Shown here: positions 1-17,431 of the stretch, piece by piece | How the letters are laid out: every line of letters begins with the position of its first letter | Numbering within the stretch: position 1 is the first letter of the stretch | Made by a program: the position numbers and the translations under genes | Origin: Candidatus Jordarchaeia archaeon | GTDB taxonomy: Archaea; Asgardarchaeota; Jordiarchaeia; Jordiarchaeales; Jordiarchaeaceae | DNA length: 21,831 bases | Direction: 5' to 3' | NCBI GenBank assembly: GCA_018383815.1 | Contig: JAHAWU010000050.1 | Span: forward strand, 1 to 21,831 | The notes under the pieces: generated by a model | The model's database searches: none | Told to the model about the DNA's origin: nothing | What the model saw: the letters and a program-made list of their open reading frames with translations, nothing else

Positions 1-1159
1 TAATTTTAGCAATATCGTTACATTCGGGTATAGTATAGATTTTGCGGTCAGGATACATTTCACGAATCCTGTCTAAGTTCTCTTCAATTGTGCAAGGCCC
101 AACGATTAAAATGTCCCCGGGCAGAAGATTGTCCAATTCGTCCCCACCAACACCCTTACCTGCAATAATGTTAAAGCCGCCCTCACCTTTAAAATCGTAC
201 CAGAAATAGAGAAGGGCCAATAACGTGTTTCCATAGCAGCCCTCAACACAGGCTATCTCCCTCCCTTTAACGAAGCGAACCTCGCTGGGGCAGTCCCTAC
301 ATGGGGTACATGGGAAACGCTCCCTGAAACGCGAAATATCACCAATAACCTCAATATCTTTAAGGTCACCGATCCCTAATCCCTGCTCCGCGGCAAGCTT
401 AACGTGTTTCACCTCTTCAACATCATAACCCAGGATTTTCGCACCTACCGTATCACATGCGACCACATCATTTGAAGCAATAAAAATATTCATTGGAACC
501 ACACACTCCGAAAGCAAAGTCTCAGGCGGAAAATGGCCAAACCTGGTGGCAGTAATACCCTCAATGATTGTAAAATCCGGACGAATAAACTTTACAGTAT
601 CCACAAGCTTCTGATGCAACTTATAATTATGATTCACAAGCTTATCACAATCATAAAGAAGCCCCTGAAAACACTTAATGCCCAGCGTAACAGTAGTCTC
701 CCAATGCGTCTTAAGCTTAGGAATATTAATCAGAACATTTCTACCCTTCCTACGAATAAGAGTATCGTATAAAATCTCAGGAAACTTAGTAGGAATACGC
801 TCATCACCCATCTCCACCATAACCGGCTTCTGCTCATCCAAGTACAGATTCTCACCCCCATTTGCCTCAACTATTCTAGCAATACCACTGACCTCAGCAA
901 CCATACGAGTAAAATTTCCCTGAGTAGAATTCTCCATCACGTAAACCTTATCCCCTGTAAATTCCCTAGCAATACTAATCATCTCACCTATAACCCTAGG
1001 ATCAGTGTACATTACCTTACCAAAGTGGACACCATTATACTTTATGAAAACCTTAGAATCAGGCTTAACAAACTCCTCAACGCCACCAAAAACATCAAAA
1101 ACTCGAAACAAAGACTCTCTAATATCCGAAACATCCTCAACAACAACCCTAGCCTTCAC
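1..1159 (-). CDS. DUF362 domain-containing protein; the C-terminal end runs off the window and the gene is absent from the supplied ORF track
   Basis: Hand translation of the minus strand gives one open frame from a GTG at 1159 to the window edge. A GGTGG Shine-Dalgarno-like motif lies a few nt upstream of the GTG. The translation reads VKARVVVEDVSDIRESLFRVF..VFIKYNGVHF..INIPKLKTHWETTVTLGIKCFQG..IIEGITATRFG..IFIASNDVVACDTVGAKILGYD..CTPCRDCP... These blocks follow the conserved DUF362 pattern. The + strand ORFs listed at 533-1259 are antisense artefacts of this gene. Confidence 0.8.
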   Translation of the reverse strand, partial: MKARVVVEDVSDIRESLFRVFDVFGGVEEFVKPDSKVFIKYNGVHFGKVMYTDPRVIGEMISIAREFTGDKVYVMENSTQGNFTRMVAEVSGIARIVEANGGENLYLDEQKPVMVEMGDERIPTKFPEILYDTLIRRKGRNVLINIPKLKTHWETTVTLGIKCFQGLLYDCDKLVNHNYKLHQKLVDTVKFIRPDFTIIEGITATRFGHFPPETLLSECVVPMNIFIASNDVVACDTVGAKILGYDVEEVKHVKLAAEQGLGIGDLKDIEVIGDISRFRERFPCTPCRDCPSEVRFVKGREIACVEGCYGNTLLALLYFWYDFKGEGGFNIIAGKGVGGDELDNLLPGDILIVGPCTIEENLDRIREMYPDRKIYTIPECNDIAKI

Positions 1160-1355
1160 AAAACCACCCCGAAAACAAATTACCAACAAATACGAGATGC
1201 TAATACAACTTGCTTCACAACCAATAAATAGTTATTTGCCAAGACTCGAAACCATCTAGATTCCAAAAATTTTCATCCACCTCTGAAGGGAAACACTACA
1301 ACATCCAAATTTTAAATAATCAAGGTTACCAACTCTCAAGGAGTCAAATTGCTTC

Positions 1356-1931
1356 CTATTTAGGAATCAGACCCTCTCTAGACCAACCCTTATCGTAGGG
1401 AGTGCCAAAGAACCATTTAACCCCCCGCGATTTTATAAACCACCTTCAATTCCTTTTCTCGTACTCATCATAATATATTCCCGCAAGCCAACCAGCCACA
1501 TTGTTCTCCCTTTAGTACTTGGAACCAAAAAAATACCACTTACCCGTAGCCCTATCCTCACCATCAATCTCTATCAAAGGGTTAAGCAACATATGGATGA
1601 TGTAGAATGGTTCGGTTATGCCTTAAAAAGGGGAGTTTTTAAAGCTCCTTTCGCAATTTAGAGCCTTATGAGGGAAACGGAACCGAATGAATCTACATCG
1701 CCCAACATATGCACACTAAATGAAAGCACCCCAAAAACCACTTTTACATAAAAGTTCCTTATCTCTTACCGACCCTTAGCACTACCAAAAGATCCAAAAT
1801 CAACAAAAGCATCCCTCAGCAAACACCTCCCTCAAAAGCAAATGCTGACACGAAGAATCCTCATAATATCCATCCACATAATAGCAATACTTAGCCTTCA
1901 ACTTTTTAATTTCCTCAACATCCTCCAACAT
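1356..1931 (-). pseudogene. Decayed SnoaL-like / NTF2-fold (SnoaL_4-type) gene
   Basis: The minus strand has an ATG at 1931 preceded by GGGGTG. It reads MLEDVEEIKKLKAKYCYYVDGYYEDSSCQHLLLREVFAE, then needs a frameshift (extra G in GAGGGAT) to continue DAFVDFGSFGSAKGR*EIRNFYVKVVFGVLSFSVHML. A 107-bp insertion follows, then LNPLIEIDGEDRATGKWYFFGSKY*RENNVAGWLAGIYYDEYEKRN*..WFFGTPYDKGWSREGLIPK*. In total there is at least one frameshift, three in-frame stops and one insertion. No ORF of 60 aa or more is called here. Confidence 0.7.
1596..1702. mobile_element. MITE-like non-autonomous insertion (107 bp) with 22-nt imperfect terminal inverted repeats and a 9-bp target-site duplication
   Basis: The left end is gatgatgtagaatggttcggtt (1596-1617). 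The reverse complement of the right end (1681-1702) is ggcgatgtagattcattcggtt, which matches at 17 of 22 positions. The direct repeat caacatatg flanks both sides (1587-1595 and 1703-1711). Removing the element plus one repeat copy restores the reading ..SVHMLLNPLIEIDG.. of the host pseudogene. Confidence 0.6.
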
Positions 1932-2068
1932 AACAAACACCCCAAAAATTCCAGACAGATTAAATCACCTAATAATTAATTTTCACACTATTTTAAATTA
2001 TCTAAAAATAGAAAATTAAATTAAGAACCAAAACACTCTAAACAATAACCAAAAAAGGAGGCATAAAA

Positions 2069-2614: not shown

Positions 2615-5446
2615 ATGGACTGGAACCAAATTGAAAAAAAATGGCAACAAAGATGGAAACAGGCCAAAATATTCCAAGCAGACCCCCCACCAAAAAATAA
2701 AAGAAAAGCTAAACATTCAAAAGGAAAACTATTTACATTCCCCTACGCATATATGAACGGACCGTTACATATAGGTCATGCCTTAACCTGTTTGCGTGTG
2801 GATATTTACGCTCGTTTTAAGCGTATGCAGGGTTATAATGTGTTGTTCCCGTTTGCTTTTCATTATACGGGGGAGCCCCTAGTGGGTGTAGCTAAGCGTA
2901 TTGCGGAGGGTGATCAGAAGCAGATTGAAATTTTGGTTAGGAGTGGTGTGCCACGAGAAGAGATTAGCAAATTTACGGATCCTAAATATATTGGTGATTA
3001 TTATCGGGCTGAGGCTATCGAAACGGTGGATCGGATTGGTTTTAGTGTTGATTGGCGGCGTCAGTTTACTACTGTTGATCCTCCTTATAATAAGTTTATT
3101 GAGTGGCAGTATTGGACTTTGCGTGATAAGGGTTATGTGGTTTTGGGTAGTCATCCGGTGGTTTGGTGTCCTCGTTGTTTGTCGCCTACTGGTGATCATG
3201 ATCGCTTGGTGGGTGAGGGTGTTTCTCCCATTGAGTATACTTTGTTGAAGTTTGAGTGTGATGGTGCTTTTCTTATGGCTGCTACTTTGCGTCCGGAGAC
3301 TGTTTTTGGTGTTACGAATATGTGGTTGAATCCGGATGCGGTTTATGTTCGGGCGCGTGTTGATGGTGAGGTGTGGATTGTTAGTAGGGAGGCTGTTCAG
3401 AAGCTTAGGGATCAGTTGCATGTGGTTGAGGTTTTGGAGGAGTTTGAAGGGCGTAGGCTTATTGGTAAGTTTTGCAGGAATGTGGTGGTGGGTAGTGAGG
3501 TTCCCATTTTGCCTGCTTCTTTTGTTGATCCGGGTAATGCTTCAGGTGTGGTTATGAGTGTTCCGAGTCATGCTCCTTTTGACTGGGCAGCTATTGCTGA
3601 TTTGCGTAGGAATCCTGAGGTTCTTAGGGAGTACGGTATTGATCCAAGTATTGTTATGGGGTTGGAGCCCATTTCTTTGATTGAGACTGAGGGGTTTGGT
3701 GAGCATCCCGCCGTAGATCTTGTTGAGGCGGCGGGTATTAAGAGTCAGAAGGATAAGCGGTTGGAGGATATCACTAAGGAGGTTTATCGGAGGGAGTTTC
3801 ATAAGGGTATTCTCAAAAAGGTCACTGGTAGATATGCGGGGCGGGGTGTTGCCGAAGTTAAGAAGGAGTTAATTGCAGATTTTGTGAGTGAGGGTAAGGC
3901 GAGTAGTTTGTGGGAGACTGCGGAGCCTGTGGTTTGCCGTTGTAATACGCGTACTATTGTGAAGATTTTGGAGAATCAGTGGTTTTTGAAGTATAGTGAT
4001 CCGGAGTGGAAGGCGCGGGTTAGAGAGCTTTTGGAGCGTATGATAATTGTTCCGGATGAGGCTAGGAGTGCTTTTGAGTATACTGTGGATTGGTTGGAGG
4101 ATAAGGCTTGTGTGCGGCGGAGTGGCTTGGGTACTAGGCTTCCTTGGGATCCAGATTGGATTGTGGAGACTTTGTCGGATTCTACGGTTTATATGGCTTT
4201 TTACACTGTTGCTAAGCACATTTATGGTTTGGGGATTCCGGCGGAGAAGTTGACTCGTGAAGTTTTTGATTATATTTTTTTGGGTAAAGGAAATGTGGAG
4301 GAGGTTGCTGGGAGGAGTGGTTTGGATGAAGAGTTGTTAGAGGATATGAGGGATGAGTTTGAGTACTGGTATCCTGTCTCTCTTAGGAATTCGGCTAAGG
4401 AGTTGATTTTTAATCACTTGACGTTTTTCTTGTTCCAGCATGTGGCTATTTGGCCGGAGGATAAGTGGCCGCGGATGGTGGGGGCCAACGGTATGATTCA
4501 GATTGAGGGGCAGAAGATGAGTAAGTCGCGGGGAATTTTTATTACTCTTAAGGAGGCTTTGGACCAATATAATGCTGATCCTACTCGTTTTGAGTTGGCG
4601 TATTCGGCTGAGGGATTGGTGGATCCGGATTGGCGGGCTCAGGAGGTTGTGAGTCTCCGTAGACGGTTGGAGTTGCTTTATGATTTTGCTACCAATCTAC
4701 CTGAGACTAAGCCTTTGGATAGGGATATTGATCCCTGGCTTTTGAGTAGGGTTCATAGGCATATTAAGGCGGCTACTGAGTATTATGAGGTTATGAGGAA
4801 TCGCTCTGCTCTTCAGGAGGGATTTTTCGACCTGTGGAATGATATCCGCTGGTATATGAGGCGTACTGAGGAATATTCAGATGTTTTAAGGAAGGCTGTG
4901 GAGACCATGATTCTTCTGGTGTCTCCTGTGACTCCTCATATTTGTGAGGAGATTTGGGAAAGAATTGGCCACAAGAGGTTCATTGTTCAGGAGCCTTGGC
5001 CGACTTATGATGAGAAGTATTTTGATGAGGAGTTGGAGCTTCGGGAGAAACTCATAAGCGACACCATTGAGGATATAAAGGAGATTCTCAAGGTTACCAG
5101 AATTGAGAAGCCTTCCAAGATTACTCTTTTTGTGGCTCAGAGTTGGAAGTACAAGATTTTAGCGGAGTCCTTAAAGAATAGGGAGGATTTGATAAAGAGA
5201 GTTATGGCTGATGCGGAGGTTAAGAAGCAGGGAAAAGATGCTGTGAACTATGCGCAAAAGTTGCTCAAGAATCCTCGCCATGAGATGCTTACTCAGGAAA
5301 TAGAATTTCAGACTTTATCTGAGGCGGCAGAGTTCTTGGCTAAGGAATTTGGAGCTAAAGTTGAGGTTCTGAGGGCTGAGGAGTCGAAACATGAGAAGGC
5401 CAGGATGGCTGAACCATTAAAACCAGGAGTTCTCATCGAAACCTAA
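2615..5446 (+). CDS. leuS: Leucine--tRNA ligase (archaeal/eukaryal type)
   Basis: 943 aa. It has the HIGH motif (PLHIGH), the KMSKS motif (QKMSKSRG), a CP1 editing-domain region and an archaeal-style C-terminal extension. All other ORFs listed between 2879 and 4567 are nested artefacts. Confidence 0.97.
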   Translation: MDWNQIEKKWQQRWKQAKIFQADPPPKNKRKAKHSKGKLFTFPYAYMNGPLHIGHALTCLRVDIYARFKRMQGYNVLFPFAFHYTGEPLVGVAKRIAEGDQKQIEILVRSGVPREEISKFTDPKYIGDYYRAEAIETVDRIGFSVDWRRQFTTVDPPYNKFIEWQYWTLRDKGYVVLGSHPVVWCPRCLSPTGDHDRLVGEGVSPIEYTLLKFECDGAFLMAATLRPETVFGVTNMWLNPDAVYVRARVDGEVWIVSREAVQKLRDQLHVVEVLEEFEGRRLIGKFCRNVVVGSEVPILPASFVDPGNASGVVMSVPSHAPFDWAAIADLRRNPEVLREYGIDPSIVMGLEPISLIETEGFGEHPAVDLVEAAGIKSQKDKRLEDITKEVYRREFHKGILKKVTGRYAGRGVAEVKKELIADFVSEGKASSLWETAEPVVCRCNTRTIVKILENQWFLKYSDPEWKARVRELLERMIIVPDEARSAFEYTVDWLEDKACVRRSGLGTRLPWDPDWIVETLSDSTVYMAFYTVAKHIYGLGIPAEKLTREVFDYIFLGKGNVEEVAGRSGLDEELLEDMRDEFEYWYPVSLRNSAKELIFNHLTFFLFQHVAIWPEDKWPRMVGANGMIQIEGQKMSKSRGIFITLKEALDQYNADPTRFELAYSAEGLVDPDWRAQEVVSLRRRLELLYDFATNLPETKPLDRDIDPWLLSRVHRHIKAATEYYEVMRNRSALQEGFFDLWNDIRWYMRRTEEYSDVLRKAVETMILLVSPVTPHICEEIWERIGHKRFIVQEPWPTYDEKYFDEELELREKLISDTIEDIKEILKVTRIEKPSKITLFVAQSWKYKILAESLKNREDLIKRVMADAEVKKQGKDAVNYAQKLLKNPRHEMLTQEIEFQTLSEAAEFLAKEFGAKVEVLRAEESKHEKARMAEPLKPGVLIET

Positions 5447-5521: not shown

Positions 5522-7084
5522 CTATGGCCAAGTTACTGTTTTGGGGACTTCGGGTAATTTTTCGCCAATGTATTTTTTGATTTTTGGGGGCCAGTCGTCA
5601 TAGTTGAATCCGTGTCTTATTAGGGTTACGTATGCGTAGCGAGATGGGCCCATTCCTACGCATCCGGTGTATACTGTTTTGCGGGTTTTGTCTCGGAAGT
5701 GGAATCTTTTTGCGTAAAAGTCAGTGTGTACGTGGAAGCTGGAGATTTCTAGTTCGGCTTCGGGTCTACTTTTGGTTTCGAAGGGGAGTATTACGGTGAG
5801 GTCGTAGGTTTTCACGAATTCTTCCTCTTTATGTTCTTCGGCGATTCCGGCGTGTTCAAGGTATACGGCGGTGGTTGCGTCTATTCGGTATTCTAGGTCC
5901 AAGTCTTTGTCTATCATGGTTTTAGCTTTTTCGAGTATTTGGTCTCTTATTTCTATGCATTTTTGGGGTGGTGCCATGTATACGAATTCTATTCTGTGGA
6001 ACTCGTTTAGGCGTTCTAGGCCTTTTAGTCCTCCCCCTTCCCACCTCCAGGTGGGTCCATTTTTGTCGTAGAATTTTATGGGGTTTTTCTCAAGTTCTTC
6101 TACGTCTACTATTTCTTGGGCGAATAGTTCGTAGAAGGGTTCACATTGGGCGTATGCTAATCCAAACATGGGGGGGCGGAGTTTTTTCTGGAGTAATTCC
6201 ACGGGAGGAGTGCCAGTTATTTCCACGTAGTCTAGTATTTCCTCGAATTCCTTGGGGTCTCGGGATATTGGGGGACAGGCCCATATTATCTCATTTGCTA
6301 TTCCGAAGTGCCCCTTTTTCATCTCAACTTCTAGTGGAATTAGTCGGGGAAGCATAACTTCTTGGAAGCCTAGGGGCTTTGCGATGTCATCAATGATTAT
6401 GTTTTCTATGGCTCTGATAAGAGCAGCATAGGGGGGCAGTATCTGCCATATGCCCGCTCCCGGGAACTCTTTAACCCATCCTAATTTAACCGCAGCTTCG
6501 GTGGGGTCTTCTCTTAACTTGTATTTTTCCAGGCCTTTGTTGCTTCTTTCAACGGTGCGTGTGTACTCCGCTTTTCCGTGAACATATTGAGCCGTAATTT
6601 TCTCCTCGAGACGCCGCAGTAGGCGGTCGGGGTAGTTTCTTTTGAGTTCACTCTCATCCATTTCCACCATAGTTATGGTGGCTGTTTTATCCTTGATTTC
6701 TAATTCTTTGGTGAAGGGTAGGGTTACTGGCTCTAGGGGTGTTTTTTCAAGTTGGGTTTCAATTCTGTACTTGGTGGCGACAGATTTCCGAATACCCGTG
6801 TGATATTTTGATCCTAGAATATTGGATAGTACGTTGGAAAGTCTGAGTAGTGCGGTGTGTGCTCTAACGTATCTGCCGCTAATTATCTGCAGTTCTATCT
6901 TATCCCCTTTGAGAGACCACTTGGTTACTTGTGCCCCTTCAGATTCTTTTCCTTTGGGCGCTCCTTTTTTAAGTAGTTTTTTGTTGGCTTCCTCGAAGAA
7001 GGCTTCTAATTCGCTTTGGGCTTCCTCAGGAAGAACACCGCTCAATTCGAAATAACCATCCAACTCCAAGTGCAACATTTCCAC
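5522..7084 (-). CDS. serS: Serine--tRNA ligase, atypical methanogen-type (type 2)
   Basis: 520 aa. The N-terminal domain reads ..WSLKGDKIELQIISGRYVRAHTALLRL..NYPDRLLRRLEEKI. The core motifs are AYAQCEPF, NEFHRIEF and TGCVGMGPSRYA. As I recall them, these match the Methanosarcina barkeri / Methanococcus-type SerRS rather than the bacterial-type enzyme. GAGGTGG precedes the ATG. Confidence 0.88.
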   Translation of the reverse strand: MEMLHLELDGYFELSGVLPEEAQSELEAFFEEANKKLLKKGAPKGKESEGAQVTKWSLKGDKIELQIISGRYVRAHTALLRLSNVLSNILGSKYHTGIRKSVATKYRIETQLEKTPLEPVTLPFTKELEIKDKTATITMVEMDESELKRNYPDRLLRRLEEKITAQYVHGKAEYTRTVERSNKGLEKYKLREDPTEAAVKLGWVKEFPGAGIWQILPPYAALIRAIENIIIDDIAKPLGFQEVMLPRLIPLEVEMKKGHFGIANEIIWACPPISRDPKEFEEILDYVEITGTPPVELLQKKLRPPMFGLAYAQCEPFYELFAQEIVDVEELEKNPIKFYDKNGPTWRWEGGGLKGLERLNEFHRIEFVYMAPPQKCIEIRDQILEKAKTMIDKDLDLEYRIDATTAVYLEHAGIAEEHKEEEFVKTYDLTVILPFETKSRPEAELEISSFHVHTDFYAKRFHFRDKTRKTVYTGCVGMGPSRYAYVTLIRHGFNYDDWPPKIKKYIGEKLPEVPKTVTWP

Positions 7085-7294: not shown

Positions 7295-7738
7295 TTATGG
7301 TAATTCGGTTCCTGGAGTCATAATGGTGTACTTTACAAGTTTAACTCCCTTGAGGGCAAGTATTTCATTGTTGAGTTTTTCGATATCCTCCACTTTTCCC
7401 CTTACTGCCAGAACAATCATACATTCACGTTCATCCAAATGTACATGCATGGAGGAAGCTATCAGTTTTAAATATTTGTGCTGTAGCTCGGTGATTTCAT
7501 CCATTATTCCTGTGGTCTCGTGGTCCAAGATTATGGTTATTGAGCCCACCATATCACCCTTACCCTTGTGCATCCAAGTATAGTTTACTATGAAGTCACG
7601 CATCGCTTTGCGTATCGCGTCAGATCTACCCTGTATTCCGAGAGACTCTGTAACCTTGTCAAATTCTTTAAGTAGGTCTTCTGGGAGGGAAACACTAAAA
7701 CGAATAAATTTCTCTGACTCAACCAAAGTTTTAACCAC
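7295..7738 (-). CDS. nikR: Nickel-responsive transcriptional regulator NikR
   Basis: The N-terminal ribbon-helix-helix reads IRFSVSLPEDLLKEFDKV..RSDAIRKAMRDFI. The C-terminal metal-binding domain has an upstream His (LDHETTG) and the H-x-H-x5-C nickel site (MHVHLDERECM). Confidence 0.85.
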   Translation of the reverse strand: MVKTLVESEKFIRFSVSLPEDLLKEFDKVTESLGIQGRSDAIRKAMRDFIVNYTWMHKGKGDMVGSITIILDHETTGIMDEITELQHKYLKLIASSMHVHLDERECMIVLAVRGKVEDIEKLNNEILALKGVKLVKYTIMTPGTELP

Positions 7739-7749
7739 ACCTTAAAATT

Positions 7750-9528
7750 TTAAGAGAGCAGGTTTAATATGGTCAGAGCGTAAATTTTAGCTGCCTTAAT
7801 TAAACTGTCTATGGACACACTCTCGTTTGCGGCGTGGGCCTCTTTAGGATCCCCTGGTCCAAAAACAGCGGTGGGAATACCGTGAGAAATACAGTGCTTC
7901 GCCACTGTTGCGCCCCCTATCCCAATTAGCTTAGGCTGGCTTCCCGTCACTTCCCTTATTACACTCACCAGCGCTCTAACAACGGGGTCTTCGGGAGAAA
8001 CTTCCGTCGGGGGATCCGAAGCTATGGGCTCTATGGCCACCTCTAGTCCAGGGTTCTCCCTCTGGACGCTCCTCACCAATTCGCGTAACTCGTTGATTAT
8101 CTGCCTCAAATCCTGGGAGGGTAGATATCTAATATCCACTGTGGCCTCGGCGGAAGCAGGAATCACGTTCGTAGCCACTCCGCCCTTTATTGTTCCTACA
8201 TTTATGGTTGGAGCTCCAAGCAAAGGATGTTCGGTGTAGGACATTTTTAGGTTTTCTATGCGGGCCAAAACCTTTGAGAGGTTTACAATTGCATTCGCGC
8301 CCTTCACCGGCATACTACCGTGACCCTGTGCACCAGTACTCTTCAGCCTGGCCCATAAACGGCCCTTTTCCGCAATCTCCACCGCTTCACACTTAGTTTG
8401 CTCAGCCACGAGAGCATAATCAGCTGTTAAGCCCTTTTCGTTCAAAAGATACTTTATGCCCAGCTCATTTCCAGTTTCCTCATCTGCCACGGCCACAAAC
8501 AACAAGCGTCCCCGAATGGGGAAATTAAACTCCTTAAGCGCCTGAATAGCCAGAAGAACAGAAGCCATAGGCCCCTTATCATCAACAACACCCCTACCCA
8601 CAATCCTACCATTAGTAGGAGTAGCTTTAAATGGATCATAAATCCATCCGTCACCCGCAGGCACCACATCCAGATGGGTAATAATCATTAAAGTGGGAGA
8701 GTTACCCTTCTCCACATAGCCTACAACGTTGGTCCGCCCACTCTCCTTCTCGTAAGATTCAGTTTGCATTCCAATCCTATACAGCTCGCCCTGAACAACA
8801 TCCGCAGCAACCTTCTCATTTCCCGGAGGATTAACAGAGCGGGCGGAAATTAGATCTTCAAGCAAATTTAGGAGATAGTCCCTTCGACTGTCAATAAACT
8901 GCAGAATCTTACTCTTAACGTCTGGAAACACTACACCCTTTACCGTAGGTAACTTTTCTTCGATACCCAACAAGCGCCTTGAAACACTTTGAAAAGCCAA
9001 ATTAACCTTGTCACCAGTTTTAGCACTAGTCTCAATGTAAGGCGCGCCCAAGCTTCTGGCAAGCATCTCCGCCTCTTGCCTAGAAACAACACGGTTGCTG
9101 GCCAAATCATTCTTATTACCGATCAAAACAATCGGTACATCACCACAAACGCTACGCAACTCTTTATACCATGTTGTAACATTCTGAAAAGATTTAGTAT
9201 CTGTTAAGTCAAAAACAATCACAGCCCCCTTAGCTCCAGCATAGAAAAACGATCTCAAGTGACTGAAGGAGGGCTGACCTCCAAGATCCCAAATCTGTAA
9301 GGTCACAATTTTATCCTCAATATTTATGGTGTGAGCAGCAAACGAAGTTCCTAAAGTCATTTTGTAGTCTTCTGAGAACCTATTCTCGGTTAGCCTTACT
9401 ATTAGGCTGGTCTTGCCTACACCACCATCCCCAATGCAAACAACTTTAAACGCATATTCTTCATGCTTGGGTACCATATCCACTCTGCCCCTATTGCAAC
9501 TTTTGCTATTTTTCTCCTTTTTCCTCAT
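7750..9528 (-). CDS. Fusion protein: N-terminal Rab/Ras-like small GTPase and C-terminal M20 family metallopeptidase (ArgE/DapE/ACY1/CPG2 type)
   Basis: GTPase module, about aa 26-187: G1 GDGGVGKTS, G3 WDLGGQ, G4 GNKND, G5 ETSAK. M20 module, from about aa 205: SVNPPGNEK..TLMIITHLDVVPAGDGW..VVDDKGP..AVADEETGN..HGSMP..GGATVAKH. It is one uninterrupted frame. The true start may be the ATG at 9477 (MVPKHEEY). Confidence 0.85.
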   Translation of the reverse strand: MRKKEKNSKSCNRGRVDMVPKHEEYAFKVVCIGDGGVGKTSLIVRLTENRFSEDYKMTLGTSFAAHTINIEDKIVTLQIWDLGGQPSFSHLRSFFYAGAKGAVIVFDLTDTKSFQNVTTWYKELRSVCGDVPIVLIGNKNDLASNRVVSRQEAEMLARSLGAPYIETSAKTGDKVNLAFQSVSRRLLGIEEKLPTVKGVVFPDVKSKILQFIDSRRDYLLNLLEDLISARSVNPPGNEKVAADVVQGELYRIGMQTESYEKESGRTNVVGYVEKGNSPTLMIITHLDVVPAGDGWIYDPFKATPTNGRIVGRGVVDDKGPMASVLLAIQALKEFNFPIRGRLLFVAVADEETGNELGIKYLLNEKGLTADYALVAEQTKCEAVEIAEKGRLWARLKSTGAQGHGSMPVKGANAIVNLSKVLARIENLKMSYTEHPLLGAPTINVGTIKGGVATNVIPASAEATVDIRYLPSQDLRQIINELRELVRSVQRENPGLEVAIEPIASDPPTEVSPEDPVVRALVSVIREVTGSQPKLIGIGGATVAKHCISHGIPTAVFGPGDPKEAHAANESVSIDSLIKAAKIYALTILNLLS

Positions 9529-9729
9529 ATTTTTTGGTGGCTTTACATAATTTACTATGTTTTTAGATATATATTATTTGCTAAGCTTTTCGTGATAGAA
9601 GGTTTATTGTATGTTATTTTTTGTTCAAACTTTAAATAGTTTAAATTGTTTGGTTCTGAATCATTCCAGCTTATGAAACATTTTTATTTGCTGATGATTT
9701 TAGAATGGTTAGTTTATATTTGAATTTTA

Positions 9730-10683
9730 ATGTTCGAGGTGTTTATTTTGCCAGTCGAGAAGCAGTTGGTGATTATTGGCGCTGGGCCAGCGGGATTGAG
9801 CGCTGGAATTTATGCGGCTAGATTTGGTTTAAATGCGGTGATTTTAGAGGCCAAGGTTAGTGGTGGCCAGGCCGCAGAGGCGGCTGTTATTGAGAATTAT
9901 CCTGGTTTTGTTAAAATTAGGGGAATGGAGTTAATGGATGCTATGAGAAAACAAGCTGAGGGATGTGGATGCGACATTCATGATTTAGAACCAGTTAGGA
10001 AAATAGAGAAGAAGGAAAAGCATGTTAGAGTTATATCGGATAGAGAGACATATGTAGCCGATGCAGTTATAATAGCTACGGGGCGTGAGCATGTGAAGCT
10101 TGGGGTGCCAGGAGAAGAGCAGTTTAGTGGTAGGGGAGTTAGTTATTGTGCAACTTGCGATGGACCCTTGTTTAAGGGTAGAAGGGTGCTTGTAGTTGGT
10201 GGTGGCAATACAGCTTGTTCAGAGGCTCTATATTTGAGTGATGTTGCCGGGGAAGTACATTTGGTTCACAGGAGGGATGATTTGCGAGCCGAAGCTTACT
10301 ACAAGAGGGTCTTGACAGAGAAGGGAGTTAAGTTTCACTGGAATACTGAAGTAAAGAGTATTGAGGGGGATAAAATAGTGAAAAAAATTCGACTTGTTAA
10401 TAATAAAACGGGGGAGGAGACTACATTGGATGTGGATGCAGTTTTCATAGCGGTGGGCTACAAGCCAGTTAGTGACTTAGCCAAGGAGGCAGGAGTCAAG
10501 CTGGATGAAGGAGGGTACATAGTAGTAGACAGGGAACAGAGAACAAATATAGAGGGAATTTTTGCGGCGGGAGACATTACCGGAGGCATTTTCCAGATTG
10601 CTACTGCTGTTGGTGAGGGAGCCACGGCGGCGGTAAACGCCTACCTTTACATTAGAGGCGGCTGGTACGGCACATCCAAATGA
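9730..10683 (+). CDS. trxB: Thioredoxin-disulfide reductase
   Basis: It has the FAD motif VIIGAGPAGLSAG, the redox-active CATC (GVSYCATCDG), the NADPH motifs VVGGGNTA and HRRDDLRA, and the C-terminal GIFAAGD. Confidence 0.9.
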   Translation: MFEVFILPVEKQLVIIGAGPAGLSAGIYAARFGLNAVILEAKVSGGQAAEAAVIENYPGFVKIRGMELMDAMRKQAEGCGCDIHDLEPVRKIEKKEKHVRVISDRETYVADAVIIATGREHVKLGVPGEEQFSGRGVSYCATCDGPLFKGRRVLVVGGGNTACSEALYLSDVAGEVHLVHRRDDLRAEAYYKRVLTEKGVKFHWNTEVKSIEGDKIVKKIRLVNNKTGEETTLDVDAVFIAVGYKPVSDLAKEAGVKLDEGGYIVVDREQRTNIEGIFAAGDITGGIFQIATAVGEGATAAVNAYLYIRGGWYGTSK

Positions 10684-10875: not shown

Positions 10876-11832
10876 TTAGGCCCAGTAGGGTTGTTTTATG
10901 TATTTGTAGGCGTTAAGAGCTGCTTTTATCCCTTCTCCTATGGCGGTCGATATTCTCATAGCTCCGCCTGCCACATCTCCTGCAGCAAAAATTCCCTCTA
11001 CACTGGTCTTTTGGTCGCAGTCGACCATTATTAAGCCTTTTTCGTCGAGTTTCACATTTAGATCTTTTAGCATCTCACTTGCTGGCACTGTTCCGAAGCA
11101 GAATATGACTTGGTCAGCCTTCATTTCTATTTCTTTTTTAGTTGCATCGTTGTATATGGTTACTCCTGTTACTTTATCGTCTCCGTGTATTTTTTGTAAT
11201 CTAGAATTGGTTAATATGTTTATTTTGCTTTTTTTCAATTGTTCTACCAGTATTTCATCCGCTCTAAAGGATTCGCGTCTGTGTACAAGGTAAACCTGTT
11301 TCGCTATGTCCTTTAAGGTAATAGCGGTTTCTACAGCTGTTTCTCCTCCGCCCACAACAAATACTATTTTATCCTTCATTTCGTTAGGGTTTTGAAGTTC
11401 GTAGCTTACACCCTTGTTTTTGAATTCTGCCTCCCCTTCGATGCCGCCCACGAAACTTTTGGAGTGTGAGCCGGTGGCGATTATTACCGCTTTGGCTCTG
11501 TAGGTTTTCCCATCATCTGTGCTTACCAGTTTATCGTTATTTTCTATTGAAACCTTGGAAACCCTTGATTCGCATTTAATTTCTGCTCCAAATTTTTGTG
11601 CTTGCCTGAGTAGGGCTTCCCCCACCTCTATTCCTTTCACCCCATCTGGGAAACCTATGAAGTCATCCACTATTTTGGTTCCATATACGTTTACTGGTTT
11701 TCCACCTACTTTACTGGTTGCCTCCAAGACCAGCGTTTTTAGTTTTCGCCTCGCGGCAAAAGCGGCGGCAGAAAGCCCAGCCGGCCCCGCTCCTACTATT
11801 ATCACATCATACTGCAAGGGTGACCTCACCAA
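10876..11832 (-). CDS. Thioredoxin-reductase-like FAD/NAD(P)-dependent oxidoreductase lacking the CxxC redox centre
   Basis: It has the same fold signature as trxB: IIVGAGPAGLSAA, VVGGGETA, HRRESFRA and GIFAAGD. At the position of CATCDG it reads GVSYELQNPN, so it has no active-site cysteines. Confidence 0.8.
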   Translation of the reverse strand: MVRSPLQYDVIIVGAGPAGLSAAAFAARRKLKTLVLEATSKVGGKPVNVYGTKIVDDFIGFPDGVKGIEVGEALLRQAQKFGAEIKCESRVSKVSIENNDKLVSTDDGKTYRAKAVIIATGSHSKSFVGGIEGEAEFKNKGVSYELQNPNEMKDKIVFVVGGGETAVETAITLKDIAKQVYLVHRRESFRADEILVEQLKKSKINILTNSRLQKIHGDDKVTGVTIYNDATKKEIEMKADQVIFCFGTVPASEMLKDLNVKLDEKGLIMVDCDQKTSVEGIFAAGDVAGGAMRISTAIGEGIKAALNAYKYIKQPYWA

Positions 11833-11925: not shown

Positions 11926-12342
11926 TTGTTAATAATGGTTGTGGTGGTTGCTACTGTGGTTATTAGGGACGATAGGGGCAGGACACTTCTGGTGAACGAT
12001 AACGGAGTATGGGCTATTCCTGGTGGGAAGGTGGAGAAGGGTGAAAGAGTGATAGAAGCCGCGGAGAGAGAAATAAAAGAGGAAACGGGATATCTAATAG
12101 ATATTAACGGTTTGGCGAGAGTTTACGAATTGAAGAAGGGGGAGGACTATCACCTATTTTTTGTATTTAAAGCCAAAATAGTGAAAAGGTTAACCGAAGG
12201 CACCAGGGAATATAAATGGTTCAAGGTAGATGAAATTGGACATCTAAACGCCTACCCTGAAACCTATTTGCTTCTAAAAGAGCTGGAGAAAAAAATTCCA
12301 AAATGTGTAGAGTACCCCCTCAATATTCACTTCTACTTTTAG
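11926..12342 (+). CDS. Nudix hydrolase
   Basis: The Nudix box GGKVEKGERVIEAAEREIKEETG fits the Gx5Ex7REUxEExGU pattern. The track start is a TTG at 11926; an ATG at 11935 is an alternative. Confidence 0.85.
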   Translation: MLIMVVVVATVVIRDDRGRTLLVNDNGVWAIPGGKVEKGERVIEAAEREIKEETGYLIDINGLARVYELKKGEDYHLFFVFKAKIVKRLTEGTREYKWFKVDEIGHLNAYPETYLLLKELEKKIPKCVEYPLNIHFYF

Positions 12343-12647: not shown

Positions 12648-13622
12648 TTGAGAATGCGCAGGGAAGATAGTATACAGGAACTTGTCTCAAAGTTTATAGA
12701 GAAGGACCGCATAGCGCTCGCAAAAATTATTACACTTGTGGAGAATGAGCCTGATAAGGCTAAGGAAATTTTTGACATCATATATAAAAATACGGGAAAG
12801 GCTTACATCATTGGTGTTACTGGGTCTCCGGGTAGCGGAAAAAGCACCCTTATTTCCAAGTTAGCTCAAGAGATGAGAAGTAGGGGAAAGACAGTTGGTA
12901 TAATTTCTATTGATCCCTCCAGTCCCTTCTCGGGAGGAGCCTTCCTAGGGGATAGAGTTAGAATGAGGGAAATTGTTTCTGATCCTGAAATATTCATTCG
13001 GAGCGTAGCATCTAGGGGGGTTTCGGGAGGGCTTTCTAAGGCCACTTATGATATTGCTGCTGTGTTCGACGCTTACGGTAAGGACTATATACTCATAGAA
13101 ACTGTAGGGGCGGGGCAAGCCGAAGTCGACATTATGAAAATTGCAGATACTATAATTTGCGTGTTTATACCGGGAGCTGGCGATTCAATACAGGCCCAGA
13201 AGGCGGGAATTATGGAAATTGGGGATATACTGGTAGTAAACAAGGCGGACATGGATGGGGACAAACTGGCGCTACAGTTAGAGTTGGCGCTGGATTCTTA
13301 CACTCGGCAAACTGGTTGGCGCCCGCCTGTTCTCTGCACCATAGCTACTGAGGGTGTGGGAATCCGGGAACTTTTGGAGTCTATTGAGAAACATAGGAAG
13401 CATATTGAACTGGCGGGTGTACTTGAGGAGAGACGGAAAACCCACATCGAGAAGAAGATTAGGGAAATTGTGCTGCAGATTGTAGAAGAGTACGTTTCCA
13501 AGTTTCTTAAAGAAGATAAAGAGATTAAAAATCTTGTAGATAAGGTCTATTCAAAAGAAGAGAACATCTACTCTGCCGCAAATAAACTCATTCAACCGCT
13601 TATCAAAAAATTTGAGGAGTAA
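12648..13622 (+). CDS. meaB: MeaB/ArgK-type G3E family GTPase (methylmalonyl-CoA mutase-associated chaperone)
   Basis: It has the P-loop GVTGSPGSGKST, then ETVGAGQAEVD, the NKxD motif VVNKADM and a C-terminal dimerisation helix. The start is either the TTG at 12648 or the ATG at 12654. Confidence 0.85.
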   Translation: MRMRREDSIQELVSKFIEKDRIALAKIITLVENEPDKAKEIFDIIYKNTGKAYIIGVTGSPGSGKSTLISKLAQEMRSRGKTVGIISIDPSSPFSGGAFLGDRVRMREIVSDPEIFIRSVASRGVSGGLSKATYDIAAVFDAYGKDYILIETVGAGQAEVDIMKIADTIICVFIPGAGDSIQAQKAGIMEIGDILVVNKADMDGDKLALQLELALDSYTRQTGWRPPVLCTIATEGVGIRELLESIEKHRKHIELAGVLEERRKTHIEKKIREIVLQIVEEYVSKFLKEDKEIKNLVDKVYSKEENIYSAANKLIQPLIKKFEE

Positions 13623-13632
13623 GTGAGTAAAA

Positions 13633-14163
13633 ATGAGTCAAAGGTTAACGAAAGGACTCATCCAAGTTTACTACGGAACGGGGAAAGGGAAGACTACAGC
13701 TGCGCTGGGATTAGCCTTTAGAGCAACAGGGCACGGGTTCAAAGTACACATGATTCAATTTATGAAGGGAGAAGTGAAATATGGAGAGATAAAAGCCGCT
13801 AAGAACTGGCCCAATCTCACAATAACCCAGTTTGGAAGACCGGAAATAATTGCCGAACCCGAAAAAGTAGACATAGAAGAAGCGAAAAAGGCCTTAGCAC
13901 TGGCAAAAAAGACAATTGAGGATGGGGAGTACGACATCCTCATATTAGACGAGGTAGGCGTGGCCATAGAGATGGAATTAATAAACGTGAGAGACGTAAT
14001 AGAGATATTGAAAGCTAAGCCACCACACCAAGAAGTTATCCTAACAGGCAGATACATGCATCCCAAACTAATGGAGATGGCAGACCTAGTCACCGAGATG
14101 AAAATGATAAAGCATCCCTTTGTCACCCAAGGATTACAAGCCAGAAAGGGCATCGATTTTTAG
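13633..14163 (+). CDS. cobO: Cob(I)yrinic acid a,c-diamide / cob(I)alamin adenosyltransferase (CobA/CobO/BtuR type)
   Basis: GLIQVYYGTGKGKTTAALGLAFRATGHGFKVHMIQFMKG and ILDEVG..LTGR are typical CobA-type motifs. It starts 10 nt after the meaB stop, so the two are probably co-transcribed. Confidence 0.88.
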   Translation: MSQRLTKGLIQVYYGTGKGKTTAALGLAFRATGHGFKVHMIQFMKGEVKYGEIKAAKNWPNLTITQFGRPEIIAEPEKVDIEEAKKALALAKKTIEDGEYDILILDEVGVAIEMELINVRDVIEILKAKPPHQEVILTGRYMHPKLMEMADLVTEMKMIKHPFVTQGLQARKGIDF

Positions 14164-15919: not shown

Positions 15920-16384
15920 GTGGTGGGTTATGCGATGGGTAAACATGGTTCTTTAAGCGGTGAAATAAGTAGCGAAGTCAGGAATATTTTGAGGGGGGAT
16001 AGTAGGTTGTTGGAGGAGGCGAAGTTTAAGCGTAAGGAAAAGGAAAATGCAATTATCTGGACTACTAATATCTATTTGAAGGATAAATCTCAGCTTTCGG
16101 AGTTTGTTTCTTACATAGCTGATGTGGTAGAGTCTATTTTGGAGAGGCATCTGGCTTCTGATGGGGAAATAATAAGATTGAGTGTTGGTAGTGGAACGGT
16201 TAGTGATAGGGGCGAGATATGGTTTGGAATAGTTGGTGGCGTAGTGTTTGAGGTTTATTGTTTTACCTGTAGGTCAATAAGCTTTGTAAGAATTTTGCAT
16301 GAAAAACAGCTCTATGGAGAAAAAAATGAGTGGGTTAGTTTAGATATAGATGAATATCTGGATTCACAATGGTTCGAAGAGTGA
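15920..16384 (+). CDS. Hypothetical protein (about 150 aa)
   Basis: The ORF starts at a GTG at 15920 or an ATG at 15935. I recognise no motif. Confidence 0.4.
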   Translation: MVGYAMGKHGSLSGEISSEVRNILRGDSRLLEEAKFKRKEKENAIIWTTNIYLKDKSQLSEFVSYIADVVESILERHLASDGEIIRLSVGSGTVSDRGEIWFGIVGGVVFEVYCFTCRSISFVRILHEKQLYGEKNEWVSLDIDEYLDSQWFEE

Positions 16385-16447: not shown

Positions 16448-17431
16448 TTATTTCTTTGATGGCTTTTTAGGTGCTGATGGTTTCGTTTCTGGTTTAGCTT
16501 TTGCTAGCTCGTCTCCGCCTAGCTCAAAGAAGAATATTCTTTCTGGTTTGAATTGAGGGGGGGTTTTAGATTTTTCTATTTTTAATTCTCCTTTGATTAG
16601 TTCTATGTTTCCTGTAAACGGGTTTAATATGAATTCTTTTTCTTCAATTTTTCCGTCTTCGGAGGGAATTTTTACATATATTAATCCATCTTCGAATTGC
16701 CAAGCAAATGTTATTAATGGTTTCCATTGGCCCTTGTTTCCCATGACGTATAGTTTGGGTGTTGACTGGGGGTTTCCGCGAATATCCTCCATTAGTGAAC
16801 TTAGCTTCATAAAGGTTTTTTCTTTTCCATCGGGATAGATTACTTTGAATGGGGGTATGTACTCAACTAGGAAGAAGTTTTGTTTCTCATCGATTATGGG
16901 ATAGGACATTTTTGTTGCGGTGACAAGATTTTTATTCAGCTCTAATTCAAAGTTTATGAGAAATGTGGTATCCGCTATTTCGTACAGTTCTTCGGTAAAC
17001 TTTTGGGCATTAAAATTTATGTTGCTCCAACTGAGTCCCATCTTTAGGGAGGGAGCGCTCCCCGATTGTTCAGCTTCGGCTAAAGTTTGAAGGAATTCTT
17101 TATCCGGTTTATGTTTGGTAACAGTTTTCTTATAAAAGTCCAGTATTTTTTTCTCATGCTCCTCGTCACAATAAATTTCAAGCATCACATCTAAACGTTT
17201 TAATTCTCCCTTTTTACCGCTCAGCATATCCTGAATATCACTAGCTTTCAAGGTATCTCTAAGTCTCTTCACAGTTCCACCGGTTAATGCTAGTTTTCTG
17301 TAAAGCTTTCTATGAGCAGCTATTGTCTCGTATAAATAGTCGGAAATCGGAGGACGTACCTCCTCTATGTATAGACGCGGCATACTTTCCATTACCCATC
17401 TTCTCCGAAACAAATTAGATTCAGATGTCAA
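16448..17431 (-). CDS. Hypothetical protein with Lys/Pro-rich C-terminal tail
   Basis: The ORF is 327 aa from the TTG at 17431; the ATG at 17392 (MESMPRLY) is more likely the start. The tail reads AKAKPETKPSAPKKPSKK. I recognise no family. Confidence 0.55.
   Translation of the reverse strand: MTSESNLFRRRWVMESMPRLYIEEVRPPISDYLYETIAAHRKLYRKLALTGGTVKRLRDTLKASDIQDMLSGKKGELKRLDVMLEIYCDEEHEKKILDFYKKTVTKHKPDKEFLQTLAEAEQSGSAPSLKMGLSWSNINFNAQKFTEELYEIADTTFLINFELELNKNLVTATKMSYPIIDEKQNFFLVEYIPPFKVIYPDGKEKTFMKLSSLMEDIRGNPQSTPKLYVMGNKGQWKPLITFAWQFEDGLIYVKIPSEDGKIEEKEFILNPFTGNIELIKGELKIEKSKTPPQFKPERIFFFELGGDELAKAKPETKPSAPKKPSKK

Follow-up and report, generated by a model that had tools for sequence, protein, structure and literature searches.

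The window analyzed here, the whole 21,831-nucleotide stretch of contig JAHAWU010000050.1 (positions 1 to 21,831; assembly GCA_018383815.1, Candidatus Jordarchaeia archaeon), carries on its minus strand an open reading frame (ORF) in which a Ras-superfamily GTPase continues into a complete, zinc-type ArgE/DapE-type amidohydrolase module of the M20 family. We are nearly certain that this Jordarchaeia GTPase-M20 fusion is one real, conserved gene, and a family with the same domain order occurs in Jordarchaeia, Hodarchaeales-type (Hod-type) and Odinarchaeia (Odin) genomes. Throughout the family the GTPase motifs are intact and the catalytic residues of the M20 module erode, a pattern suggesting that catalysis is not what the M20 module contributes to the family as a whole.

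A Ras-Family G Domain and an M20 Module Share One Reading Frame

The initial annotation reported a single 592-aa ORF fusing a small GTPase to an M20 peptidase in frame, and this ORF is present exactly at 7750..9528 of the minus strand (Table 1; residues are numbered along it throughout). The native protein, judged from homologous start sites, most likely has 575 amino acids and is started at 9477. In an alignment of the upstream regions of five loci from the window's own clade (clade a, defined below), the ATG at 9528 has no counterpart in loci L018 and L007 (∼80% identity), and the ATG at 9477 (Met18) is the sole conserved start codon. Homologues are 575–576 aa long and begin at the Met18 equivalent, from which P0001 (98% identity) is also called; we favor the 575-aa length because only the ATG at 9477 is conserved among them.

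The N-terminal part is a G domain with all of its diagnostic motifs. Pfam Ras (PF00071) matches residues 28–186 (E-value 8.8e-53, profile positions 1–160 of 162) with 178.6 bits against a gathering cutoff of 21.6, compared to 44.5 bits for Arf. The Ras-superfamily consensus (GxxxxGK[ST], a switch-I Thr, DxxGQ, NKxD and SAK) is fully matched by G1 GDGGVGKTS, Thr58, G3 WDLGGQ with the catalytic Gln85, G4 NKND and G5 ETSAK. The closest entry in the PDB is a Thorarchaeota Rab (7EZB, E-value 1e-40), followed by Rab21, Rab2, Rab1 and Rab11, with the Rab matches at ∼40% identity; the earlier description of a Rab/Ras-like domain bearing G1, G3, G4 and G5 is thus borne out. In the AlphaFold2 (AF2) model the predicted local distance difference test score (pLDDT) is mostly above 90 across this domain. 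A Roc match (PF08477, 111.5 bits) overlaps the Ras match; Pfam detected no COR domain in the fusion, whose C-terminus is M20, and no roadblock or longin domain.

The fusion G domain belongs to the Ras superfamily and, by similarity, to the Asgard RasL group, a label that follows the Klinger 2016 classification as used in 10.1101/2024.02.28.582541, which reports no Asgard RasL that is specifically sister to the Rabs. Resemblance to the RabF motifs is partial: TLQIW and IVFDLT approximate KLQIW and LVYDIT, whereas LGTSF and SHLRSF differ from IGVDF and RFRSIT. A Cys prenylation motif (CC/CXC/CAAX) is absent, the chain running on past helix α5 via LLGIEEKLPTVKGVVFPDV into the M20 module, so that the G domain has no free C-terminus; the linker contains no Cys. 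We withhold the name Rab because this Rab-defining C-terminal feature is missing. The WDLGGQ variant of G3 was considered as a signature of the fused family and rejected, as it is present in 40 of the 120 closest stand-alone Asgard GTPases.

The C-terminal part is an M20 module of the dimeric type. Pfam Peptidase_M20 (PF01546) matches residues 282–588 (E-value 1.3e-34, 120.4 bits against a cutoff of 24.6), and M20_dimer (PF07687), inserted within the catalytic domain, matches residues 385–491 (E-value 1.9e-25, 89.3 bits against 21). The ArgE/DapE subfamily model TIGR01910 of NCBIfam scores 295.4 bits against a cutoff of 217.6. The closest structures in the PDB are DapE (7UOI) and E. coli ArgE (7RSF), and alignment to them places the metal ligands His285, Asp316, Glu351, Glu376 and His565 and the general base Glu350, all present. 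The initial annotation had described a full ArgE/DapE-type M20 peptidase with its ligands; the ligand set is indeed complete, but the HGSMP motif that was counted among them holds no ligand. Its His403 (GHGSMP) is instead the lid-domain His, aligned with the HSSMP and HSSDP motifs of 7UOI and 7RSF. In DapE, a conserved lid His completes the active site of the partner subunit. Foldseek superposes the M20 part on DapE 5VO3 and 7UOI with template modeling (TM) scores, normalized to the target, of 0.85–0.87, and the size and type of the lid fit dimeric DapE/ArgE/CPG2 rather than PepV.

Fold and chemistry of the module are therefore clear from sequence, and the substrate is not assignable from equivalog models. 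All NCBIfam equivalogs score under their cutoffs (NF010589 251.6/333, NF006399 232.5/381, TIGR01892 192.1/297.7, TIGR01246 148.5/361.8), and none of the DapE, ArgE, PepV, YgeY or PRK13983 hydrolase identities is reached. The closest free-standing relatives are uncharacterized archaeal M20 proteins of Bathyarchaeia and Nezhaarchaeales (∼50% identity). Their neighbors (NAD synthase and an aminotransferase in Bathyarchaeia; HIT, RimK-type ATP-grasp and F420 ligase genes in Nezhaarchaeota) include no LysW/ArgX or Dap cluster and gave no clue to a substrate.

The Fusion Recurs in Three Asgard Classes

We searched 5.8 billion proteins, and ran phmmer against 1.84 billion cluster representatives, of which the best 150 matches were listed (floor ∼215 bits). 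Fourteen protein clusters combine Ras with M20, eight at 80–98% identity to the window's protein (clade a) and six at 49–54% (clade b). They derive from NCBI, JGI, ENA and Logan assemblies and have the same continuous frame; the named members, from Ca. Freyrarchaeum, Jordarchaeales or Freyarchaeota, are annotated “ArgE/DapE family deacylase.” Both “Freyarchaeota” and “Freyrarchaeota” count as other names for Jordarchaeia in 10.1101/2024.02.28.582541. A scan of GTDB species representatives found the fusion at 100% identity in “Ca. Freyarchaeota archaeon isolate SQRJ_82” and at full length in seven more Jordarchaeia-type genomes, eight in all at 49–100% identity. A clade-b fusion (54% identity, same trxB/NUDIX synteny) was also seen at locus L019 (JAPDJY010000012.1) in a metagenome-assembled genome (MAG) labeled “Thermoproteota archaeon S9B3_HD70”; this label is probably wrong, or the contig mis-binned.

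Two proteins among the best 150 phmmer matches combine Ras and M20, the clade-a representative and P0121 (607 aa, 39% identical). The other multi-stretch matches examined, which exclude P0136, P0141, P0225 and P0230, are tandem-Ras or DUF2007-M20 proteins. P0121 and its relative P0263, both Ras plus M20 by Pfam, come from Hodarchaeota-type MAGs, and a search seeded with P0121 recovered the Odinarchaeia proteins P0264–P0268 (552–581 aa, aligned over 88–99% of their length), one of them on the closed Ca. Odinarchaeum yellowstonii chromosome CP091871.1. The best-150 list did not catch these Odin-type fusions, and other divergent fusions could escape it likewise. In the Odin proteins Pfam detects the Ras domain only; nevertheless, hhalign aligns their C-terminal region to the M20 profile with 96.6% probability (E-value 6e-10, 341 columns spanning the catalytic and lid parts), and the AF2 model of P0265 (pLDDT 71.6) has M20 enzymes as its top Foldseek matches (E-value ∼1e-13, probability 1.0, with low global TM-scores). 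Among GTDB species representatives the architecture is present in 8 Jordarchaeia-type, 3 Hod-type and 3 Odin genomes.

That a sequencing or assembly frameshift, or a chimera, joined a GTPase gene to a neighboring M20 gene, for which only the general prior for MAGs speaks, has a negligible probability given the agreement among independent assemblies of four sources in uninterrupted frame, order of domains and junction motif, the recurrence in eight species-level Jordarchaeia genomes and the presence of the fusion in Hod-type and Odin genomes, including closed CP091871.1; the frameshift merger against which the initial annotation cautioned is excluded by the continuous frame from 98% down to 49% identity.

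The GTPase Is Constant, the Hydrolase Decays

We tabulated the functional positions of both domains in 22 fused proteins and 14 GTDB species genomes. No fused protein departs from the consensus in G1, the switch-I Thr, G3 with its catalytic Gln, G4 or G5, and variation is limited to non-consensus or peripheral sites: inside the P-loop, at the residue before it (GNG in some Odin proteins) and at the x of NKxD. The M20 positions behave differently. Clade a has the full catalytic set, invariant across ∼20% sequence divergence, and keeps His403. All members of Jordarchaeia clade b have Gly in place of Glu376, and one lineage within it (L022/P0013, Jordarchaeia QC4) has also replaced the general base (E350G), which marks an intermediate stage on the way to catalytic loss. 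The Hod-type proteins carry D316C, E350G, E351L, E376S and H565N, and no catalytic residue is kept consistently at any of the six aligned positions of the Odin proteins, although the lid region is retained even there (the hhalign alignment spans it).

With the G motifs intact and the M20 catalytic residues eroding, it is therefore the GTPase and the M20 fold that are constant, not hydrolysis. The invariance of the clade-a catalytic residues over ∼20% divergence argues that hydrolysis is under selection in that clade. By these sequence patterns, selection keeps the GTPase and the M20 fold family-wide, and hydrolysis only in the window's clade.

The Two Domains Are Predicted to Be Flexibly Tethered

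The fusion was modeled with AF2 as a monomer from a 90-sequence alignment, giving a mean pLDDT of 92.9 and a predicted TM-score (pTM) of 0.68. The last helix of the G domain ends at about residue 186 and the first M20 helix starts at about 202. Between them lies a conserved LGIxEK motif, in which Leu187, Gly188 and Glu191 are invariant in Jordarchaeia clades a and b, followed by a variable disordered stretch; the sole disordered part of the model (pLDDT <50) falls at model residues 175–182, i.e., ORF residues 192–199. The linker, put at about 15 aa in the initial annotation, is indeed short, at ∼14 aa in the window's protein, and lengthens to a Pro-rich ∼45–60 aa in the Odin and Hod proteins. 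No PDB entry found by Foldseek spans both domains (best TM-score normalized to the query ≤0.59). The model thus predicts two domains, each folded with confidence, that are joined by a short flexible tether and whose orientation to each other is not confidently fixed.

Genomic Neighborhood of the Fusion

Coordinates of the fusion, its parts and the neighboring genes are collected in Table 1.

Table 1. Features of the window, with coordinates on the 21,831-nucleotide stretch and the basis for each assignment.
Feature	Position	Strand	Basis or remark
Fusion ORF (RasL G domain, linker, M20)	7750..9528	−	592 codons, uninterrupted
Fusion coding sequence, conserved start Met18 to stop, 575 aa	7750..9477	−	Homologue starts, upstream alignment
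17-codon N-terminal extension, probably 5′ untranslated region	9478..9528	−	Upstream ATG not conserved
Ras-family G domain, ORF residues 24–187	8968..9459	−	Pfam, PDB, motifs, AF2
Interdomain linker, ORF residues 188–201	8926..8967	−	AF2 pLDDT, alignment
M20 (ArgE/DapE-type) amidohydrolase module, residues 202–592	7753..8925	−	Pfam, NCBIfam, 7RSF/7UOI alignment, Foldseek
M20 lid/dimerization sub-domain, residues 385–491, including His403 (GHGSMP)	8056..8376	−	Pfam M20_dimer
nikR (RHH + NikR_C)	7295..7738	−	Pfam; GTG at 7738, 11 nt past the fusion stop at 7750–7752
Putative promoter block, BRE (B recognition element)/TATA-like, AAAGCTTAGCAAATAATATATAT	9567..9589	−	Best-conserved upstream block in five clade-a loci; function inferred
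trxB-like	9730..10683	+	Pfam
Second trxB-like	10876..11832	−	Pfam
NUDIX	11926..12342	+	Pfam
LeuRS (leucyl-tRNA synthetase)	2615..5446	+	Pfam; tblastn matches in L013 (Hod) and L014 (Odin), opposite strand to fusion
Class-II aminoacyl-tRNA synthetase, SerRS-like (seryl)	5522..7084	−	tRNA_bind_4 E-value 7.5e-44; weak tRNA-synt_2b core match
MeaB-type G3E GTPase	12648..13622	+	Pfam, E-value 2e-90
Zinc ribbon + Yip1 protein, 281 aa	17888..18733	+	PF04893 E-value 1.6e-10

The initial annotation placed the fusion directly downstream of nikR and divergent from trxB. The second placement agrees with the trxB-like gene at 9730..10683 (+), from which the fusion is separated by a divergent intergenic region of 201 bp; the first is reversed, the fusion lying upstream of nikR on the same minus strand with an 11-nt gap, and the linkage is confined to clade a (nikR immediately downstream in 6/6 clade-a loci, 0/11 clade-b loci). 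The encoded NikR matches that of P. horikoshii (2BJ1, E-value 6.5e-33) with its H..HxH..C residues aligned, the residues of the high-affinity nickel site. The fusion and nikR form a probable two-gene operon, and its expression is probably metal-responsive. The linkage coincides with the sole clade that has a full di-metal site, which is suggestive, but there are just two clades to compare. A search of the 201-bp upstream region for a NikR operator found no inverted repeat that is conserved; the one candidate is a palindrome, weak and AT-rich.

All six clade-a loci share the order fusion, nikR, SerRS-like gene and convergent LeuRS, and all 11 clade-b loci the order trxB-like (−), NUDIX (+) and fusion (+). 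The trxB-like pair and NUDIX adjoin the fusion in every Jordarchaeia locus, on the opposite side in the window compared to clade b. In Hod and Odin genomes the fusion heads a same-strand string with a YjeF_N/carbohydrate-kinase gene of the NAD(P)HX repair type, a gelsolin-like gene and a roadblock/LC7 gene (L013:8904-11896; L014:8691-11596). The Odin gelsolin-like protein matches Lokiarchaeota 2DGel (7WHG, E-value 8e-7; Pfam Gelsolin 22.1 bits against a cutoff of 21), the Odin roadblock/LC7 protein scores 28.9 bits against a Pfam cutoff of 23, and both genes are orthologous between Hod and Odin (E-values 1e-78 and 1e-55, respectively). This string may constitute a GTPase, roadblock and actin-regulator module. 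The Odin roadblock neighbor is not identical to the crystallized Odin-RB_LC7 (7F8F), its best PDB matches being 9JUE and 7F8M (E-value ∼1e-5). No roadblock or gelsolin counterpart was found in the window or in any Jordarchaeia locus; the window ORFs at 15920..16384 (+, 154 aa) and 16448..17431 (−, 327 aa) have no significant Pfam match and are unrelated to the Hod/Odin roadblock and gelsolin-like genes.

Other GTPase and M20 genes were noted near the fusion or its relatives. A stand-alone Ras GTPase (178–184 aa) lies 1–4 kb downstream of the clade-b fusion in L001, L002, L006 and L008 (L001:10958-11494, L006:11373-11927, L008:8790-9329), adjoining genes for ribosomal protein L24e and nucleoside-diphosphate kinase. 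The L001 copy shares only 45% identity with the window's G domain, which has closer relatives. A “Promethearchaeota” MAG has, at L026:2477-5404, a free-standing M20 gene with its catalytic set complete and a stand-alone Ras gene ∼1.2–1.3 kb away. We rejected this locus as a split-gene state, as the Ras gene is on the opposite strand with an aminotransferase between them, and it says little, if anything, for an association without fusion. In the window itself, the MeaB gene is directly followed by an ATP:corrinoid adenosyltransferase (E-value 2.6e-63), the two forming a B12-enzyme chaperone pair at 12648..14163 (+). The Yip1 protein is encoded ∼8 kb from the fusion; eukaryotic Yip1 proteins are Rab-interacting membrane proteins.

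Elsewhere in the window, the class-II synthetase may be an unusual (methanogen-type) SerRS-like enzyme. Positions 1..2068 contain no listed complete ORF of at least 100 aa, with a GC skew down to −0.44; much of this region is filled by a 410-codon minus-strand open frame that probably runs off the window end and matches the DUF362 gene at the corresponding position of L007. Rfam and tRNA scans of the window returned no matches. A defense-system identity was considered and rejected, as the window fusion, Hod P0121 and Odin P0265 match 0 PADLOC-DB families; the window NUDIX weakly matches the PADLOC candidate family PDC-S07 (E-value 1e-12), probably through generic NUDIX similarity.

A Model for the Fusion and Its Alternatives

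In our overall picture a dimer-forming M20 scaffold carries a Rab-like switch on a tether, and in the window's clade the protein is still catalytic and its gene co-transcribed with nikR; we advance this picture tentatively, as a plausible reading that falls just short of being probable. DapE, ArgE and CPG2 form lid-mediated homodimers. If the M20 module dimerizes through its lid in the same way, two tethered G domains would be placed side by side, and the M20 fold would act as the permanent dimerization and effector platform of a GTP switch, much as COR does in Roco proteins or the C-terminal roadblock domain of Rag GTPases does there. In the window's clade this platform would remain an active deacylase or peptidase, co-transcribed with NikR and tied to it in expression. 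Any coupling between the domains is speculative: the G domain could dock onto the M20 lid or active-site cleft in a GTP/GDP-dependent manner and thereby gate lid closure or, alternatively, couple substrate occupancy of the hydrolase to GTPase output. The initial annotation proposed nucleotide-state control of a deacylase. This stands as one possibility; for the family as a whole, the Hod and Odin homologues, which keep the GTPase and lose the M20 catalytic residues, suggest a role of the M20 module other than catalysis.

Several observations weigh against this picture or its extension to the whole family. The AF2 monomer lacks a confident fixed interdomain interface, as its pTM indicates, and a flexible linker of variable length also fits plain tethering without allostery. 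The M20 fold of Odin P0265 is not fully independent support, because the alignment behind that model held true M20 sequences. The nikR linkage, present in one clade only, could be neutral synteny. Dimerization, GTP hydrolysis, hydrolase activity and interdomain communication are all properties that we infer. Finally, a single origin of the fusions does not emerge from either domain. A neighbor-joining tree of 139 G domains (200 bootstraps, no eukaryotic sequences) united Jordarchaeia a and b in 199/200 replicates and Hod with Odin in 154/200, and all fused proteins together in only 9/200; the fused G domains sit in a 43-member sub-cluster with 25 others, 24 stand-alone RasL proteins and the partial P0277. 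The M20 similarities are equivocal, the Hod module scoring 234 bits against Jordarchaeia fused proteins and 226 bits against free-standing ones.

Micro-synteny, on the other hand, hints at orthology and a shared origin, because LeuRS and the YjeF_N gene recur downstream of the fusion across classes. In the window, the Hod locus (L013) and the Odin locus (L014), a convergent LeuRS lies a few kb downstream of the fusion, and the YjeF_N/carbohydrate-kinase gene follows the fusion directly in Hod and Odin and lies ∼5.5 kb downstream in clade-b L001 and L008. The Odin C-terminal domain is closest to that of Hod (E-value 9e-7).

The domains could instead act independently, with the fusion serving to secure co-expression or co-recruitment (for example, of the hydrolase to wherever the G domain attaches in its GTP-bound form) and no allostery between them. 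We regard this as the less likely course, and still one to be reckoned with: the disordered linker varies in length, the model combines a pLDDT of 93 with a pTM of only 0.68, and domain shuffling is rampant among Asgard eukaryote-signature proteins according to 10.1101/2020.10.19.343400. It is hard to square, however, a passenger enzyme with a fusion that is kept in three Asgard classes even after the loss of catalysis, and LGIxEK at the domain boundary is conserved in both Jordarchaeia clades.

Another possibility is that the M20 fold serves as a small-molecule input, binding an N-acyl amino acid, a dipeptide or an amino-acid derivative that sets the nucleotide state or partner binding of the GTPase, with output to roadblock-type partners and with clade-a catalysis as ancestral baggage or signal termination. 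The Hod and Odin proteins, which keep the M20 fold and a perfect GTPase and lose catalysis, have the usual signature of an enzyme turned binding module, and their genes stand in a string with roadblock/LC7 and gelsolin-like genes; moreover, Asgard roadblock, DENN and GTPase modules are proposed as Rag/FLCN-like amino-acid-sensing machinery in 10.1101/2020.10.19.343400. Against this, the invariance of the clade-a catalytic residues indicates that hydrolysis is under selection there, the Jordarchaeia loci lack the roadblock and gelsolin homologues, and no ligand is known; we consider this reading unlikely.

It is very improbable that GTP hydrolysis by the G domain drives the loading or exchange of metal (Ni, Co or Zn) at the site of the M20 module, even though this would explain the nikR operon, which has intact Ni ligands at 6/6 clade-a loci, the sole loci with a full ligand set, and is missing from the 11 clade-b loci that also lack Glu376; this correlation involves two clades only, known metal-insertion GTPases (HypB, UreG, CobW/ZNG1, MeaB) are G3E/SIMIBI-class rather than Ras-like, the fusion has no cobW/HypB Pfam match (PF02492 none at E ≤0.01), the G-domain alignment contains no Cys/His-rich (CxCC-type) metal-binding motif, and in the Hod and Odin proteins the GTPase persists although no metal site remains that it could load.

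Relation to Known Systems

The fusion sequences are already public, and what is new is the recognition of their architecture: public annotations name one domain only, “ArgE/DapE family deacylase” or, for Odin, “Rab family GTPase.” The initial annotation did not recognize the architecture as a described one, and we likewise found no description of it, nor any mention of an M20 partner for a GTPase, in the searchable literature (full text and some supplements, most subscription journals being outside reach). Its further premise that small GTPases are normally stand-alone fails for Asgard archaea, for which PMC10933270 and 10.1101/2020.10.19.343400 describe multidomain GTPases with longin, roadblock and unknown domains as fusion partners.

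Compared to Asgard RasL/Rab-like GTPases, the fusion shares a G domain that is ∼50% identical to stand-alone Jordarchaeia and Odin small GTPases, 7EZB as the best PDB match, the G1–G5 motifs with the catalytic Gln and the WDLGGQ variant; it differs in continuing into a 390-aa M20 module instead of ending after α5 and in having no C-terminal Cys lipidation motif. With the dimeric M20 deacylases (DapE/ArgE/CPG2; 7UOI, 5VO3, 7RSF, 1CG2) it shares the catalytic-plus-lid architecture, the five ligands, the general base and the lid His, whereas the N-terminal GTPase is absent from every solved M20 structure matched by Foldseek.

Roco (Roc-COR) and Rag/Gtr proteins offer the nearest parallel in layout, an N-terminal Ras-superfamily G domain followed by a C-terminal domain with obligate-dimer homologues, from which we infer a paired-switch mode of working for the fusion. 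The clustering of the Hod and Odin fusions with a roadblock gene likewise recalls Rag/roadblock systems. Unlike Roco, Rag/Gtr and the Asgard longin/roadblock fusions, however, the C-terminal module has an M20 fold rather than a COR, roadblock or longin domain, and unlike Roco/Rag, in the window's fusion it is still predicted to be catalytically complete. The G3E metallochaperones (HypB, UreG, CobW/ZNG1, MeaB) resemble the fusion in tying a GTPase functionally to a metalloenzyme, and the window's gene has its probable operon with nikR, but they are SIMIBI proteins and the fusion is TRAFAC Ras-like; a genuine MeaB elsewhere in the window provides the contrast.

Implications

Asgard small GTPases are central to debates on the origin of eukaryotic membrane and cytoskeletal regulation, and next to nothing is known of what they regulate. 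The GTPase-M20 family gives a Rab-like switch a covalent, identifiable partner domain. Its members form a natural series, from catalytic through the loss of one ligand to the loss of most and then all, that can be used to ask what a GTPase needs from its partner, and the window's version, with both activities predicted intact, is the most tractable member for in vitro study of GTPase-hydrolase cross-talk. The family spans Hodarchaeales-type genomes and the closed Odinarchaeum genome, with roadblock and gelsolin homologues in the same string; Hodarchaeales are placed closest to eukaryotes by Eme et al. 2023 (PMC10307638).

A broader proposal, which we think quite doubtful, is that the Jordarchaeia, Hod and Odin fusions are one vertically inherited, ancient Asgard module, consisting of a dimerizing, small-molecule-sensing M20 input, a Rab-like switch and roadblock/gelsolin-type outputs. 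If this were true, the module would be a prokaryotic counterpart, derived from an enzyme, of the GTPase machineries that sense nutrients, Rag-Ragulator among them; the window's protein would retain the module's ancestral state, with catalysis still in place, and the family would record a stepwise, datable conversion of an enzyme into a GTPase regulatory domain on the lineage towards eukaryotes.

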